A program made the translations under genes and the position numbers. From a virus (lineage: Duplodnaviria > Heunggongvirae > Uroviricota > Caudoviricetes), in IMG/VR virus record IMGVR_UViG_2563366860_000002: a DNA stretch of 31,464 nucleotides; one strand, 5' to 3'. Below the pieces are notes generated by a model that made no database searches, was not told the origin of the DNA, and worked only from the letters and a program-made list of their open reading frames with translations. Positions 16,573 to 31,464 of this stretch are shown here, piece after piece; the first letter of the stretch is position 1; each line of letters starts with the position of its first letter.

Positions 16573-16770
16573 CACTTTTTTAAATCCAACGACAGACGGC
16601 TGGCATTTAAGTATTGTGAAATATTATCAAATGTAATCATCATTGATTTACAAAAGATACATTTTGCCCCGAAAGGATTCATGTCAGAAACATCAAAAGA
16701 TGATGTTCTATACTGGGAACCATGACAACACGGGCATCTAAAGTGAATATGGTTTGTAATATTGTCTACC

Positions 16771-16983
16771 TCAAAGCGCCACTACATGAACAGCGGCAGG
16801 ACCTTTAGGTCCGTTCTCAATACCAAATTCAACTTCCTGATTCTCAGTTAATGTTTTGAAATCGTTGCTCTGAATTGCTGAGAAATGGACAAACACATCT
16901 TTGCTGCCATCTTTCGGCGTGATGAAACCAAAACCTTTTTCAGGGTTAAACCATTTCACTAAACCAGTCATTTTGTTAGACAT
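16771..16983 (-). CDS. cspI: Cold shock protein (CspI-like)
   Basis: 70 aa; [38 protein letters not shown]... with canonical CSD RNP motifs (KGFGFI, VFVHF); ~360 bp AT-rich 5' region consistent with a long cold-shock leader. Confidence 0.9.
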
Positions 16984-17346
16984 AATTATTACCTTTTGAA
17001 GAAATTAGCCCTTGGGCAGAATGGTCCGAAAAAAAATATCAGAGAGAAAAACCAACAAGGAAATCTCAAGAGGTACAAATAATAAAATTATAACAATGAC
17101 TGCTTCAGATAAATTTGTAACAAACCAGAACACCATTAACGCATGATTAACCACCCATAGCAAGGATTACTTTTGTAAAGAAAAACACAGCAATGAAAGA
17201 ATAGCTTTATTTATTAATAATAACGTGTCATTCTGATTAAGACCTTTTATCTTACCCTTAAGATTTCAGGAATTTTGGCTCATGGAAGAGTCCTTTTTAT
17301 TTAAATTTTACATTCCGCGATGTAAATGTTCCGATTTAATATTACC

Positions 17347-19375: not shown

Positions 19376-19655
19376 AGATTGTGGTGCTTTTTGTGGGAGT
19401 CATCCACTTACGCACTTTGTTTTGCCATGCCAGCAGTTAGCTTCTGCTGTAAAACTATTCATGCAGCAAACCTGCACTTCACCACAATGGTTAGCATACT
19501 TTTCCTGATTAAGATTTTGCCAAATATGCTAGCCATTGTTTCATGTATTGGACCTCCTTACTTTTTATTAAAGAGATCCAATATTCACTACTCTGTCCGT
19601 ATCTCTACTCAGGCATCAGCCTTCTTCGTTATCGTATACAGACGAGCGATGAATT

Positions 19656-19871
19656 TTAATCAGTAATGATGACATTTGCTGCTGCAGGACCTTTAGCACC
19701 ACTCTCTATAGAGAAGGTAACCTTTTGACCTTCAAATAAGGTTCGATAATTATCATTCTGAATCGCAGAAAAATGCACAAACACATCTTTACTACCATCA
19801 ACAGGAGAAATAAAGCCGAAACCTTTATCAGCGTTAAACCATTTTACTAAACCAGTCATTTTATTTGACAT
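19656..19871 (-). CDS. cspB: Cold shock protein (CspB-like)
   Basis: 71 aa; [38 protein letters not shown]...; canonical CSD. Confidence 0.9.
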
Positions 19872-20171
19872 TCTACATTCCTTAACTTGAGCCTTTCGGC
19901 ATAAATGGTTTGCATAACAGAAACGACTTCGTACTTAATTGGAGAGACTCAAAGAAGGAATAAGTGAATAACACCTGAAATGAGAACTGCTTTAGTAAAC
20001 TACTTCGTATATCGTCTGTTCTTCAAACCGACGCAATCATTAACGCATAGTTGAACATATGAAGCAATGTTTATTTTAGACATCCAGCCATCTTCAACCC
20101 CATCAAAAAACTATAGCTTTCTTCAGGAACGTGTGTATAGTGCGCCAAGTTATCAGTATTAAGGAATTTTT

Positions 20172-23435: not shown

Positions 23436-23591
23436 TTACTCCTCAGGTTCGTAAGCTGTGAAGACAGCGACCTCCGTCTGGCCGGTTCGGATTCGTACCT
23501 CGCAGAGGTCTTTCCTCGTTACCAGTGCCGTCACTATGACGGTTAAACAGATGACGATCAGGGCGATTAACATCGCCTTTTGCTGCTTCAT
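23436..23591 (-). CDS. hokD: Hok/Gef-family type I toxin (HokD/RelF-like), 51 aa
   Basis: MKQQKAMLIALIVICLTVIVTALVTRKDLCEVRIRTGQTEVAVFTAYEPEE; single TM; the overlapping longer frame (to 23648) is consistent with a mok-like leader ORF. Confidence 0.9.
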   Translation of the reverse strand: MKQQKAMLIALIVICLTVIVTALVTRKDLCEVRIRTGQTEVAVFTAYEPEE

Positions 23592-23599
23592 AGCCTGCT

Positions 23600-23720
23600 T
23601 CTCCTTGCCTTTCGGCTCGTAAGAGGCTAACCTACATGTGTCTAGCATGAAATTGGCCTCAGATTAATGTTAAGCGTCTTGCAGGACGCGTAATGTTAAC
23701 TGGGGCTTTTCTCTATCTGC
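23600..23720 (+). ncRNA. Putative Sok-like antisense RNA opposite the hok mRNA leader (approximate position)
   Basis: Inferred from hok/sok paradigm only; the hok leader region is ORF-poor; no promoter or terminator mapped. Confidence 0.3.
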
Positions 23721-23828
23721 CTTTCAGTGTTCATGCCTGAGACAGATAGCCTCAAGCACCCGCAGCCATTCTACTTAACTCACGTCACCTCGCCAATATG
23801 AAATCAATCAGAAAGGTGATCCATAAAA

Positions 23829-28330: not shown

Positions 28331-28431
28331 AGCTACTCCTTAGTAAACACAGCAAAAGAATACCCACAGGTAAACAAAAGTCAATACCCACAGGTTGTTT
28401 ACCTTGCGGTAATCGCATCTATTATTTACCT
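28331..28431. promoter_or_regulatory. Divergent promoter/operator region (OR-like) between repressor and Cro-like genes
   Basis: Direct repeats of ATACCCACAGGT (two identical 12-mers ~24 bp apart) plus related GTAAAC/GTTTACC half-sites and TTTACCTATGG over the repressor start. Confidence 0.6.
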
Positions 28432-28851
28432 ATGGACAAATATGAATTTAGACGACAGCAACTCATCAAAATTCGTGATGAGAAATGCGATGGTAAAGCG
28501 GTTAACGTGGCCAGAAAGATCGGGCGCGAGCCTTCTTATGTATCAAGAATGTTGTACCCAGAGGGGAAAAAGGGAAAAAAACGGATCGCTGATGATATGG
28601 TGGAGATTATCGAAGAGTCCTTTGGGTTACCCCGGGGATGGATGGATGGTATCGTTTCATCATCAACGAACACAGCCTCCAGTTATGAAACAAGGGTTCT
28701 AACGCCACGACAACGTATTTTTTTAGATCTCTTAGACGAACTGCCAGAAAGTGAAGCGGATAAATTATTAAAAACTCTTGAAGAGAAAAAACAGTATTAC
28801 AATATGATCTACGAAGAAATCCGTAAAAAGAAAGCACAAAACGCATCATAG
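28432..28851 (+). CDS. CI-like prophage repressor (XRE-family HTH; no LexA-type peptidase domain seen)
   Basis: 139 aa; N-terminal HTH (AVNVARKIGREPSYVSRML); C-terminal region lacks S24 Ser/Lys autocleavage features; divergent from the Cro-like gene. Confidence 0.75.
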   Translation: MDKYEFRRQQLIKIRDEKCDGKAVNVARKIGREPSYVSRMLYPEGKKGKKRIADDMVEIIEESFGLPRGWMDGIVSSSTNTASSYETRVLTPRQRIFLDLLDELPESEADKLLKTLEEKKQYYNMIYEEIRKKKAQNAS

Positions 28852-28889: not shown

Positions 28890-28935
28890 AATTTACCCAT
28901 GGGTATTTACTTTTTAAATACCTATGGGTATCCTT
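28890..28935. promoter_or_regulatory. Second operator-like cluster (OL-like) downstream of the repressor gene
   Basis: Palindrome TACCCATGGGTA and near-palindrome ATACCTATGGGTAT ~25 bp apart, sharing the TACCCA/TGGGTA half-sites of the OR-like repeats; TTTACT...TAAATA promoter-like spacing. Confidence 0.45.
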
Positions 28936-29116: not shown

Positions 29117-29269
29117 ATGGATACTATCGATCTTGGCAACAGCGAATCTCTGGTATGTGGCGTGTTCCCCAACCAGGACGGTACGTTCACCGCGATGACG
29201 TATACCAGAAGCAAAACGTTTAAAACTGAAGCTGGCGCGCGTCGCTGGTTAACCAGAAACACTGACTGA
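29117..29269 (+). CDS. Small hypothetical protein (50 aa)
   Basis: ORF 29036..29269; ATG at 29117 with GAGG RBS; MDTIDLGNSESLVCGVFPNQDGTFTAMTYTRSKTFKTEAGARRWLTRNTD. Confidence 0.5.
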   Translation: MDTIDLGNSESLVCGVFPNQDGTFTAMTYTRSKTFKTEAGARRWLTRNTD

Positions 29270-29280
29270 TGAGGTTGACG

Positions 29281-29682
29281 ATGGAATTTAAAGATTTACC
29301 AGTACCATTCCAGGAAATGGCATCGAATGTGGTTCGCTCTCAACTGGCGACTCTTGACCTGAGTACCGTAGAAAAGGAAACCATCGATACTATATCCGGT
29401 AACGTGCGTCGTGCCTTTATAGGTCTGTATGAAGAGAAGCGCCTATTCGGCGGACAGAATTCGCCTGAAAACAAGAATCAAGCAAATGATGAGAAGCTGA
29501 AACACATTATCGCCTTACTTTTGGAAGACGCAAAACGTCTACAGCAACTGGAACCAAATGCAGGCACAGAGGCCCGCATTTGGATTGCCATGAAATCACT
29601 CAAATGTGAAAGCAGTGATTATTTCAAAACAACAATTAAAACTACTCAACTTTCGGGAGAGCTACTGAAGAAATTGCCATAA
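29281..29682 (+). CDS. Hypothetical protein (133 aa)
   Basis: ATG at 29281 with GAGG upstream, 12 nt after the previous stop; soluble, acidic; 3' end overlaps the convergent minus-strand gene. Confidence 0.55.
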   Translation: MEFKDLPVPFQEMASNVVRSQLATLDLSTVEKETIDTISGNVRRAFIGLYEEKRLFGGQNSPENKNQANDEKLKHIIALLLEDAKRLQQLEPNAGTEARIWIAMKSLKCESSDYFKTTIKTTQLSGELLKKLP

Positions 29683-29920
29683 GAGCATAGTCTTTCTCTT
29701 GTTCTGCAAGATGAGCATTAATACCTGGTATGGTTTTTTCAAATTTATCTATCTGTTGAATAACAACTTCGCGGTATACGTTTGTTTTTGTACCACCAAG
29801 CGCAGCCGTTAATGCAGAAAGCATATTTAGTATCATATCAGTGCGATATGAAAGAATCCTGATAGCTTCATCTTGTTCTTCAATAATAGATTGCAGGGCC
29901 TCAATTTGCTTTTTATCCAT
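29642..29920 (-). CDS. Hypothetical protein (92 aa), convergent
   Basis: ORF 29642..29959; ATG at 29920 with strong AGGAGG RBS; predicted helical (MDKKQIEALQSIIEEQDEAIRILSYRTDMILNML...). Confidence 0.6.
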   Translation of the reverse strand: MDKKQIEALQSIIEEQDEAIRILSYRTDMILNMLSALTAALGGTKTNVYREVVIQQIDKFEKTIPGINAHLAEQEKDYALMAISSVALPKVE

Positions 29921-29939
29921 TTCACCCTCCTGAGGGTTG

Positions 29940-30480
29940 GTAATTAAGGAGTTCTCCACGGGTCAGGTGGAGTGCGTGCGCCGGACACGGGTGAGCATCC
30001 GGCACTGACAGCTTACTGAAAGGATATGTCCCTGAAAAGTCAGGGCATAACGCGAAAGCGCACGGCGAAATTGGTCTCTCTGTACGGTGTCGTTAAATTT
30101 AGTTCGACCGTGCGCTTCCGGTTGTGGCACTCCGCGAAATGGCGCGGCGGTAAGTATGGCTGGGGTTTCCTCCATTGCTCCAGAAAATGCACCGGGTTGT
30201 CAGGTTGACCATACGCTTAAGTGACAACCCCGCTACAACGCCCTCTGTTATCAATTTTCTGGTGACATTTGGCGGTATCAGTTTTACTCCGTGACTGCTC
30301 TGCCGCCCTTTTTAAAGTGAATTTTGTGATGCGGTGAATGCGGCTATGCGCACGCGGAACAGTTAAAGCAGTAAGGCGGTATTTTACGGGCGTAACGAGC
30401 ATCAACTAACCCGGCGTTAATTGTTAACTGGTTAACGTCACCTGGAGGCACCAGGCACTGCATCACAAAATTCATTGTTG
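29940..30480. other. GC-rich, ORF-poor structured segment (candidate structured RNA / antitermination or regulatory region)
   Basis: No ORF with an RBS; many stable hairpins (CCGGACACGGGTGAGCATCCGG; boxB-like CCCTGA-AAAG-TCAGGG; GCGCACGG...CCGTGCGC; GGTTGTCA...TGACAACC); ends with GCCGCCCTTTTT. Confidence 0.35.
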
Positions 30481-30491
30481 AGGACGCGATA

Positions 30492-30680
30492 ATGGAAACG
30501 TTATTACCAAACGTTAATACGTCTGAAGGTTGTTTTGATATTGGTGTTCTGCTCAGTAACCGGGAGTTTACTGAAGATGCCATTAATATGAGGAAATATG
30601 AGCCTTATCTGCTCAATGATAATTCCATACTTTCCCGAATTGCTCTTCTTGAACTTGGTATTTTCGGAGAACGTCAATGA
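30492..30680 (+). CDS. Hypothetical early-left protein (62 aa)
   Basis: ATG with GAGGA RBS; preceded by dyad CGTTAA-N-TTAACG; stop overlaps next start (ATGA). Confidence 0.5.
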   Translation: METLLPNVNTSEGCFDIGVLLSNREFTEDAINMRKYEPYLLNDNSILSRIALLELGIFGERQ

Positions 30681-30865
30681 CTTCAGCATTTGCACTGATG
30701 ATGACGGTTTTTCTTATAACGGGTGAATCACAGAATGTGATTACCGGAATTTATGCAAGTAAAGAATCCTGCCTCCAGGCAAGAGACGAGCAAAAAATTT
30801 CTGGTGAATGCCTCCCGCTAAAAAAAGTATCGCTGTACCTGAATAACGAAACACCGGCTGGATAA
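30677..30865 (+). CDS. Small membrane protein (62 aa)
   Basis: Translationally coupled to the upstream ORF; N-terminal hydrophobic segment AFALMMTVFLITG. Confidence 0.5.
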   Translation: MTSAFALMMTVFLITGESQNVITGIYASKESCLQARDEQKISGECLPLKKVSLYLNNETPAG

Positions 30866-30960
30866 CCCTCCAGCCATATTAACACCATACCAACGGATTA
30901 AAAATGCCAGCAATGGCAGGGATTCGTTCACCCTGAAATCTGTAATGAGGTTAAAACAAA

Positions 30961-31464
30961 ATGAGTAAGGTCTTTATTTGCGCTGCTATTCCTGATGAAC
31001 AGGCCATAAAAGAAGATAGCGCTGTTGCGGTGGCCACTGCCATTGAAGCTGGTGATGAGCGTCGCGCACGCGCAAAATTTCATTGGCAATTTCTGGAGCA
31101 ATTCCCTGCAGCTCAGGACTGCGCTTATAAATTTATTGTCTGTGAGGATAAACCCGGCATACCCCGCCCTGCCCTCGATTCCTGGGATGCTGAATATATG
31201 CAGGAAAACCGCTGGGATGAGGAGTCTGCTTCCTTTGTCCCGGTTGAGACTGAATCAGATCCGATGAACGTCACTTTTGACAAGCTGGCCCCTGAAGTAC
31301 AGAACGCTGTCATGGTTAAGTTCGACACATGTGAAAACATCACCGTTGATATGGTTATTAGCGCACAGGAATTGTTGCAGGAAGACATGGCAACATTCGA
31401 CGGACATATCGTTGAAGCGTTGATGAAAATGCCAGAAGTTAACGCCATGTATCCGGAGCTTAAG
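30961..31464 (+). CDS. Hypothetical acidic early-left protein, 5' partial (open to window end, at least 168 codons)
   Basis: ATG at 30961 with GAGG ~10 nt upstream; frame open to end of window (hand-verified codon by codon); absent from ORF track because it has no stop in the window. Confidence 0.6.
   Translation, partial: MSKVFICAAIPDEQAIKEDSAVAVATAIEAGDERRARAKFHWQFLEQFPAAQDCAYKFIVCEDKPGIPRPALDSWDAEYMQENRWDEESASFVPVETESDPMNVTFDKLAPEVQNAVMVKFDTCENITVDMVISAQELLQEDMATFDGHIVEALMKMPEVNAMYPELK

Follow-up and report, generated by a model that had tools for sequence, protein, structure and literature searches.

Sequence analysis of the dicF-dicB locus in a Qin-like lambdoid prophage: a known small RNA gene beside two conserved structured RNA modules

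The dicF gene encodes one of the first bacterial regulatory RNAs to be described. In Escherichia coli K-12, its product is a 53-nt Hfq-dependent small RNA (sRNA) that two nucleases, RNase III and RNase E, release from the polycistronic dicBF RNA (PMC10448788, PMC5069750). The 5' end of a 190-nt species is made by RNase III and that of the 53-nt species by RNase E (PMC10448788), and the 3' ends arise either by intrinsic termination (53 nt) or by an RNase III cut of read-through RNA (72 nt) (PMC10448788, PMC5069750), the 72-nt DicF thus being an RNase III product (PMC5069750). Transcripts of 1146 nt (ending at dicF) and of 1608 nt (through ydfD) are known from the same strain (PMC10448788, PMC5069750). 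A second structured RNA that bears on the present locus is STnc100, a prophage-associated RNA of Gammaproteobacteria, the function of which is described as unclear (bioRxiv 10.64898/2026.05.13.724894).

The window analyzed here is the whole stretch of 31,464 nucleotides of IMG/VR virus record IMGVR_UViG_2563366860_000002 (Caudoviricetes). An initial annotation had singled out its positions 29940-30480 as a GC-rich, hairpin-dense and ORF-free segment. The GC content there is indeed 0.514, versus 0.400 in 29400-29939 and 0.406 in 30481-31020; with a whole-window value of 0.492, the segment is GC-rich relative to its immediate neighbors only. The density of hairpins is also borne out, as the + strand folds more stably than dinucleotide shuffles both in 29940-30320 (z = -2.96) and in 30300-30500 (z = -3.97); the minus strand of the segment folds well too (z = -3.93 against the same kind of shuffles). 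The framing of the segment as a space between two operons did not hold. It sits within a single + strand early-left operon that runs from a ydfA-like gene to dicF, dicB and a ydfD-like gene, all on the + strand, and the 92-aa minus-strand ORF on its left is an antisense insert in that operon.

A structured sRNA or a processed leader had been among the proposals for the segment, and this option proved correct: the segment encodes DicF, as seen from both an Rfam match and the alignment to K-12 dicF. The Rfam scan, which had been suggested as a check and was run on the whole window, found DicF (RF00039) at 30257-30308 (+), the 77.0 bits (E = 1.4e-15) exceeding the gathering score of 48. The match spans model positions 1-52 of 52, without any non-canonical pair in the Rfam structure line. 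The RNA shows a single-stranded 5' seed, a two-part hairpin and a U-run, and dicB follows about 180 nt downstream in this early operon of the prophage. In comparison with K-12, 52 of the 53 nt are identical; the sole change, G12A at window position 30267, lies near the 5' seed, and the 3' part that pairs with ftsZ is the same as in K-12. Pfam matches to DicB, DUF1391 (YdfA) and DUF1482 (YdfD) stand in the gene order of K-12 (Table 1). On these matches, the segment is the known dicF sRNA gene with its processing leader, just upstream of dicB, and hence real and already known; it is almost certainly the non-coding center of dicBF, the pL-type early-left operon in a Qin-like lambdoid prophage of E. 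coli. The identity of DicF and DicB, the homologous leader, the predicted stems and the covariation of the two blocks here called A and B are established in this analysis.

Table 1. Coordinates of features in and around the dicF-dicB segment (window positions, except for entries that begin with L, which are positions in or names of other loci)
Feature	Position	Strand	Basis or remark
ydfA-like ORF, DUF1391	29117-29269	+	Pfam, 95 bits
5' leader part	29936-30029	+	Left end of the K-12 Qin homology, shortly after the start of the 92-aa minus-strand ORF
boxB-like hairpin, CCCTGA-AAAG-TCAGGG	30030-30045	+	Sequence check
Interrupted upstream stem	30056-30069 paired with 30103-30117	+	MFE and centroid folds
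Block A, four-way-junction RNA domain	30121-30239	+	RNAalifold consensus
Block A, P1	30121-30128/30232-30239	+	
Block A, P2	30132-30147	+	
Block A, P3	30148-30151/30191-30194	+	Carries variable hairpin P3b, 30160-30183
Block A, P4	30196-30228	+	
A/U-rich single-stranded linker, GCCCTCTGTTATCAAT	30240-30255	+	Abuts DicF 5' end
DicF sRNA, 53 nt	30256-30308	+	Alignment to annotated K-12 dicF; Rfam RF00039
DicF intrinsic terminator stems	30271-30277/30301-30307 and 30279-30282/30294-30297	+	
DicF U5 tail (TTTTT)	30309-30313	+	Sequence check
Block B, structured dicB leader	30316-30476	+	Fold, z = -3.97 (30300-30500)
Block B 21-bp closing helix	30316-30336 paired with 30456-30476	+	Ends 3 nt before dicB Shine-Dalgarno
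dicB Shine-Dalgarno, GAGGA	30480-30484	+	
dicB CDS, 62 aa	30492-30680	+	Pfam DicB, 125.5 bits; annotated in the identical locus of RefSeq CE10
ydfD-like gene, DUF1482	30677-30865	+	Pfam, 54 bits
Block B homologues	L263:1501-1646, L264:1501-1634, L265:1501-1621, L137:2501-2616, L136:3842-3961		
Variant cargo loci	L222-L260, L140, L147, L166 and others		
Arrays with isrK and C4	L166:1171-1359, L255:2874-3062, L186:3635-3820, L241:1001-1183		

The likeness to the Qin prophage of K-12 extends beyond the sRNA itself. The order ydfA-like ... dicF, dicB, ydfD-like is shared, with the layout of b1574/b1575; the ydfC-dicF-dicB spacer aligns from about 29936 to the start of dicB at 90% mean column identity; and the predicted stems stand where the published RNase III, RNase E and terminator ends are expected. 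However, ydfB and ydfC lie upstream in K-12, whereas the window has a 133/137-aa ORF and the antisense 92-aa ORF instead. The repressor gene of the window is unrelated to dicA and without a Pfam match. Differences in both sequence and length were also seen in the variable loops, namely P3b in block A and the insert in block B.

A 601-nt query from the locus had matches in 4715 of the 5426 complete E. coli genomes, where it hit two places in the median and ten at most. The segment is 100% identical in strain CE10 and in many other strains, in which dicB is annotated, and it is also found in functional phages, namely Tritos (the record of which annotates DicF) and mEp460. A scan of genome contigs with the DicF pattern gave 13 loci, half of which belong to metagenome-assembled genomes (MAGs) assigned to unrelated taxa and share little beyond the pattern, so that the scan contributed hardly any diversity. 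The finding as given matters little, being the rediscovery of dicF in one of very many prophage copies. What is gained is that the coordinates of DicF, its terminator, the likely nuclease sites and dicB are now fixed, and that about 280 nt outside DicF turn out to be two conserved structured modules with covariation that current annotation ignores. Only blocks A and B and the variable cargo between them have some novelty, the DicF locus itself being already known. As to prior descriptions, the searchable literature, which does not cover key older papers, holds only the annotation of a 'dicF-like region' in P1 and general statements about STnc100.

The leader opens with a part whose predicted fold includes the hairpins GGAGTTCTCC and GCCGGA...TCCGGC. 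It is a mosaic: the identity of 29940-30119 in about 100 relatives falls into classes of approximately 50%, 61%, 78-90% and 98-100%. Further downstream is an interrupted stem, the arms of which are nearly invariant among the relatives while its apical part is variable; a sequence homologous to this upstream stem appears in Fig. S1 of PMC10448788. The stem has only 10 + 4 bp with a bulge, which is short for a classical RNase III substrate, and its variation consists of wobble or one-sided changes only, so that covariation is uninformative there. Counting 190 nt back from 30308-30313 leads to 30119-30124, where the upstream stem has its 3' foot and the next domain its first base. The coincidence of this foot with the expected 5' end of the 190-nt species points to an upstream RNase III site at about 30119-30124, a placement by length arithmetic on the K-12 species and by predicted structure. 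The RNase E cut that makes the 5' end of DicF would fall, from the alignment to K-12 dicF, at the 3' edge of the A/U-rich linker, 30255/30256. Counting 72 nt forward from 30256 leads to about 30327, in the middle of the 5' arm of the 21-bp helix that closes block B (30316-30336), and we infer from this length and the predicted structure that a downstream RNase III site near 30327 may give the 72-nt DicF.

Between the upstream stem and the linker lies block A, which is the 5' body of the published 190-nt precursor. Its consensus structure, a four-way junction, was obtained with RNAalifold from 31 non-redundant relatives. In these 31 copies 98.4% of the cells are paired, and double changes were found at seven pairs, as compared with 2.1 in column shuffles (none of 500 shuffles reached seven) and with zero to two pairs in slid-partner controls. 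Hairpin P3b is represented by many different self-complementary sequences among the relatives. The covariation analysis across homologues, which had also been suggested as a check on a structured RNA, thus gave support for block A, and it did so for block B as well (see below). A covariance model of block A, named R1, found exactly one copy in the window, with 143.7 bits. Block A did not match any Rfam family in a scan of 29600-30800, in which nothing with E <= 5 was found beyond DicF, a sub-threshold STnc100 and one chance snoRNA match. Nor is the four-way junction a tRNA or tmRNA-like gene by ARAGORN, which found none in 29800-30600.

BLAST searches showed that the sub-blocks of the segment travel separately among phages. 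The stretch 30121-30247 recurs at about 80% identity in Stx2c phages, Ayreon, 2H10, cdtI, the Salmonella phage F1055 and the leader of the ban operon of P1 and P7, and was found in 61 phage records in all. The leader of P1, annotated as a 'dicF-like region' (GenBank AF234172), resembles the present locus in that block A (97.6 bits with R1) is followed by an intrinsic terminator and lies directly downstream of a repressor-controlled promoter. However, the RNA after block A in P1 is not DicF but a hairpin, GCCCATCTTCGGGTGGGC, followed by U7, with no Rfam DicF match, and the ban operon continues with tRNA genes and tciA, not with dicB.

The sequence that follows the closing helix of block A varies, and at least ten classes of it were distinguished among the IMG/VR contigs with block A. 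Each class ends in a GC-rich hairpin and a U-run, and DicF is the commonest. Some of the other classes keep the stem base UUUGGCGG with different seeds and loops, and one keeps the 5' seed of DicF with a different terminator; of ten variant cargo loci scanned, none reached the Rfam gathering score for DicF. In most of the E. coli classes, the downstream sequence returns to the constant start of block B. The slot between the two blocks therefore looks like an exchangeable sRNA slot, and, as far as their sequences tell, blocks A and B behave as constant scaffolds that flank different terminator-bearing RNAs in lambdoid and P1-like phages. Tentatively, and with less than even confidence, DicF could be regarded as one interchangeable cargo in a phage RNA cassette, in which block A would have a function of its own, either in read-through or as a processing and stability platform on which seeds are swapped. 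If the modules are functional scaffolds, both for exchangeable sRNAs and for leaders of early toxic genes, this would help explain how temperate phages diversify sRNAs that target the host, and also the tight post-transcriptional control of division inhibitors. In some related prophages, the antisense RNAs isrK and C4 were seen within a few hundred nt after the array of block A, cargo and block B (Table 1), so that some early-left operons are runs of structured RNAs.

Block A may have a role beyond that of a precursor body. One such role would be that of a cis-acting RNA that modifies the polymerase, in analogy to the put RNAs of HK022, or that otherwise sets the read-through of the terminator; if true, it would let phages without N express the rest of the early operon. 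In favor of it, the conservation of block A, with covariation, extends from lambdoid pL operons to the ban leader of P1/P7, the loop sequences of the block are nearly invariant, as expected of a binding surface, and an intrinsic terminator follows at about 10-90 nt in every class seen. In Ayreon and the Stx2c phages, about 300 nt separate block A from the cI-proximal promoter upstream of it, an interval that holds no ORF of the size of N; in P1, it starts about 35 nt after Pban, before a strong terminator and 2.4 kb before ban. The HK022 put RNAs and lambda nut sites are likewise structured RNAs of early operons located upstream of intrinsic terminators, and no N gene is evident here. However, a put-type element, which the initial annotation had also raised, was not shown: R1 made only chance-level matches on the HK022 putL and putR regions, reaching, with filters off, 5.9 bits (E about 9) beside putL and having no match at putR. 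There is no detectable similarity of sequence or structure, and size and topology differ, an approximately 120-nt four-way junction standing against two stem-loops of about 70 nt (PMC9378689). A large share of the K-12 transcripts do terminate at dicF, and block A accumulates in the stable 190-nt RNA (PMC10448788), which fits a precursor or stabilizing role equally well. In addition, block A is about 1.2 kb from the promoter in this window. We therefore consider an action on the polymerase or on read-through unlikely.

Downstream of DicF, block B forms the structured leader of dicB. Its 21-bp closing helix encloses conserved hairpins (GCGTTAATTGTTAACTGGTTAACGT; CCTGGAGGCACCAGG) and a variable insert. 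Among seven diverse homologues, 11 of the 33 predicted pairs show compensatory changes, among them the complete exchange of one hairpin stem and of part of the closing helix. The changes in the 21-bp helix among close relatives are wobble or one-sided, and the helix is supported only after homologues of the Klebsiella and P1 types are added. Homologues of block B were found in 47 phage records, and in these it directly precedes different division-inhibitor or host-toxic genes: dicB in Qin-type prophages, kilR in Rac-SA53, a cluster of small ORFs and kil, directly downstream, in a Klebsiella phage, and tciA/terB in P1, P7 and D6. Block B is, going by the alignment, a distant, sub-threshold relative of STnc100 (RF02076): 30306-30524 scored 31.1 bits, below the gathering score of 47 (E = 1.2e-4), in an alignment that spans model positions 1-206, and the homologues of P7 and P1 scored 43.0 and 33.4 bits, both also below the threshold. 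The two share a helix-closed multi-hairpin architecture and the motifs GGUGAAU and UCACCnGGAGGCACCnGGCAC. However, reports of canonical STnc100 place it in late regions, such as downstream of stx2, whereas block B is the 5' leader of early division-inhibitor genes, and its 21-bp closing helix in the window agrees with an RNase III cut known from the literature. Weak matches of R1 (13-14 bits, E about 0.07-0.09) were seen on the STnc100-like elements of P7 (L137:2485-2626) and P1 (L136:3826-3971); these may reflect a distant relation between blocks A and B or chance, and are too weak for a claim.

The match to STnc100, although below the threshold, raises the alternative that block B is an independent trans-acting sRNA of this type, given that Rfam classes STnc100 as an sRNA gene and that it is a prophage-associated sRNA related to PasD (bioRxiv 10.64898/2026.05.13.724894); or block B might hold a separate promoter for dicB, since an earlier study, in the form in which PMC10448788 cites it, suggested a promoter upstream of that gene. 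However, the score is under the family threshold, and Ragunathan et al. saw no sign of a promoter within the K-12 operon (PMC10448788). In seven diverse phages, moreover, block B stops 3-45 nt short of the Shine-Dalgarno sequence and the ATG of the following gene and lacks its own terminator, an arrangement typical of a 5' leader. That block B is an independent sRNA or harbors a promoter is thus improbable, and the most suitable reading is a conserved, structured 5' leader for toxic early genes; in the dicB and kilR phages, this leader carries a long helix suited to RNase III. It may also have a role beyond that of a leader.

The known features of K-12 and the predicted structures suggest the following course of events. 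When the repressor is lifted, transcription would proceed from the pL-like promoter at about 28.9 kb through the ydfA-like genes into the leader, and the RNA would fold into the upstream stem, block A, the DicF hairpins and block B (Table 1). Most transcripts would end at the intrinsic terminator of DicF, and the remainder would read into dicB and the ydfD-like gene. A cut by RNase III at the foot of the upstream stem would yield the precursor of about 190 nt, and a cut by RNase E in the A/U-rich linker would release the mature 53-nt DicF; in the read-through RNA, RNase III would cut the 21-bp helix of block B, giving the 72-nt DicF and a dicB mRNA with a short leader. Together with Hfq, DicF would then use its 3' part to repress ftsZ and its 5' part to repress xylR, pykA and manX, and DicB would block division through MinC. 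The dependence on these nucleases, the RNA species and the targets of DicF are carried over from the K-12 literature, and would apply here by analogy.

The hairpin CCCTGA-AAAG-TCAGGG, quoted in the initial annotation as reminiscent of lambda nut boxB, is present in the segment, upstream of an intrinsic terminator and within the early-left operon, and has the 10-mer CCCTGAAAAG in common with boxB of lambda nutL. It might on these grounds recruit an N-like antiterminator for read-through of the DicF terminator and later ones. The hairpin has a 6-bp stem and an AAAG tetraloop, as compared with a 5-bp stem and a GAAAA pentaloop; the nearest boxA match on the + strand (CGCTCTTA-like, with one mismatch) is at 29907-29915, 115 nt upstream, and the window as a whole has no more boxA-like matches than chance would give (20, with 20.9 expected). 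A Pfam search found no N-like family among the proteins of the operon, and some 1.1 kb separate the hairpin from the pL-like promoter. Of about 100 relatives, only about a quarter have it intact, and the changes are one-sided: the commonest relatives, K-12 included, read ...CCCTGAAAAGTCAGACC, in which GG>AC on one side breaks two pairs, others have CCC>CCA or CTC, and about a quarter have unrelated sequence at this place. Unlike the lambda nut sites, this is a hairpin without boxA and without N, and it is not conserved; a nut site is accordingly rejected as extremely improbable, and the lead can be dropped.

A decayed coding gene, or a gene for a small protein, is similarly hard to credit as an explanation of the interval: mechanical six-frame ORFs of 45-70 aa do overlap it on both strands, and some phage records have automatic 'hypothetical protein' calls under the match, but none of these ORFs (70 aa or shorter) is conserved, the ATG of the 60-aa + ORF reading ATT in K-12 and that of the 70-aa - ORF lying inside a variable loop that differs in K-12, while indels among relatives are not multiples of three and are limited to hairpin loops, substitutions are compensatory across helices, and the RefSeq (PGAP) annotation has no CDS here in either CE10 (identical locus) or K-12. 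The homologues do not show the interval as a pseudogene, and this reading is rejected.

The start of the operon appears to be of the pL type, with operator-like palindromes, TACCCATGGGTA, and plausible -35 and -10 sequences at about 28.9 kb, roughly 1 kb upstream of the segment. Half-palindromes of the form TACCCA(C/T)(A/G)GGTA are repeated at 28360-28430 and at 28890-28935, flanking the 139-aa gene in the position of the repressor (28432-28851), neither related to dicA nor matched in Pfam; by their sequence and arrangement, the two groups look like operators of the OR and OL types. An inverted repeat at 28894-28930 was called a 'terminator' by a simple scan.

The 92-aa ORF (29642-29920, minus strand), antisense inside the early-left operon, has a strong AGGAGG Shine-Dalgarno sequence and shares 41 nt with the 3' end of the 133/137-aa + ORF. 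Pfam had no match for it, and a protein search gave only unnamed hypothetical proteins of E. coli and Salmonella. A simple scan of the segment did not find a minus-strand promoter for this ORF, only weak candidates being visible by eye; the promoter may sit in the DicF leader.

Elsewhere in the window, Rfam matches to the cspA thermoregulator were found at 19640-20032 (-) with 158.8 bits and at 16744-17129 (-) with 112.8 bits. These are, to judge from the matches, cold-shock-protein genes of the prophage with their 5' UTRs, as with cspB/cspF/cspI in Qin. A match to the sok antitoxin RNA at 23586-23761 (-), with 117.8 bits, implies a toxin-antitoxin module of the hok/sok type, comparable to that with hokD in Qin. 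In the identical locus of CE10 (L001:5062-7534, corresponding to the window from about 30961), the exonuclease-domain gene past the ydfD-like gene is frameshifted in RefSeq, so that this copy of the prophage may be defective.
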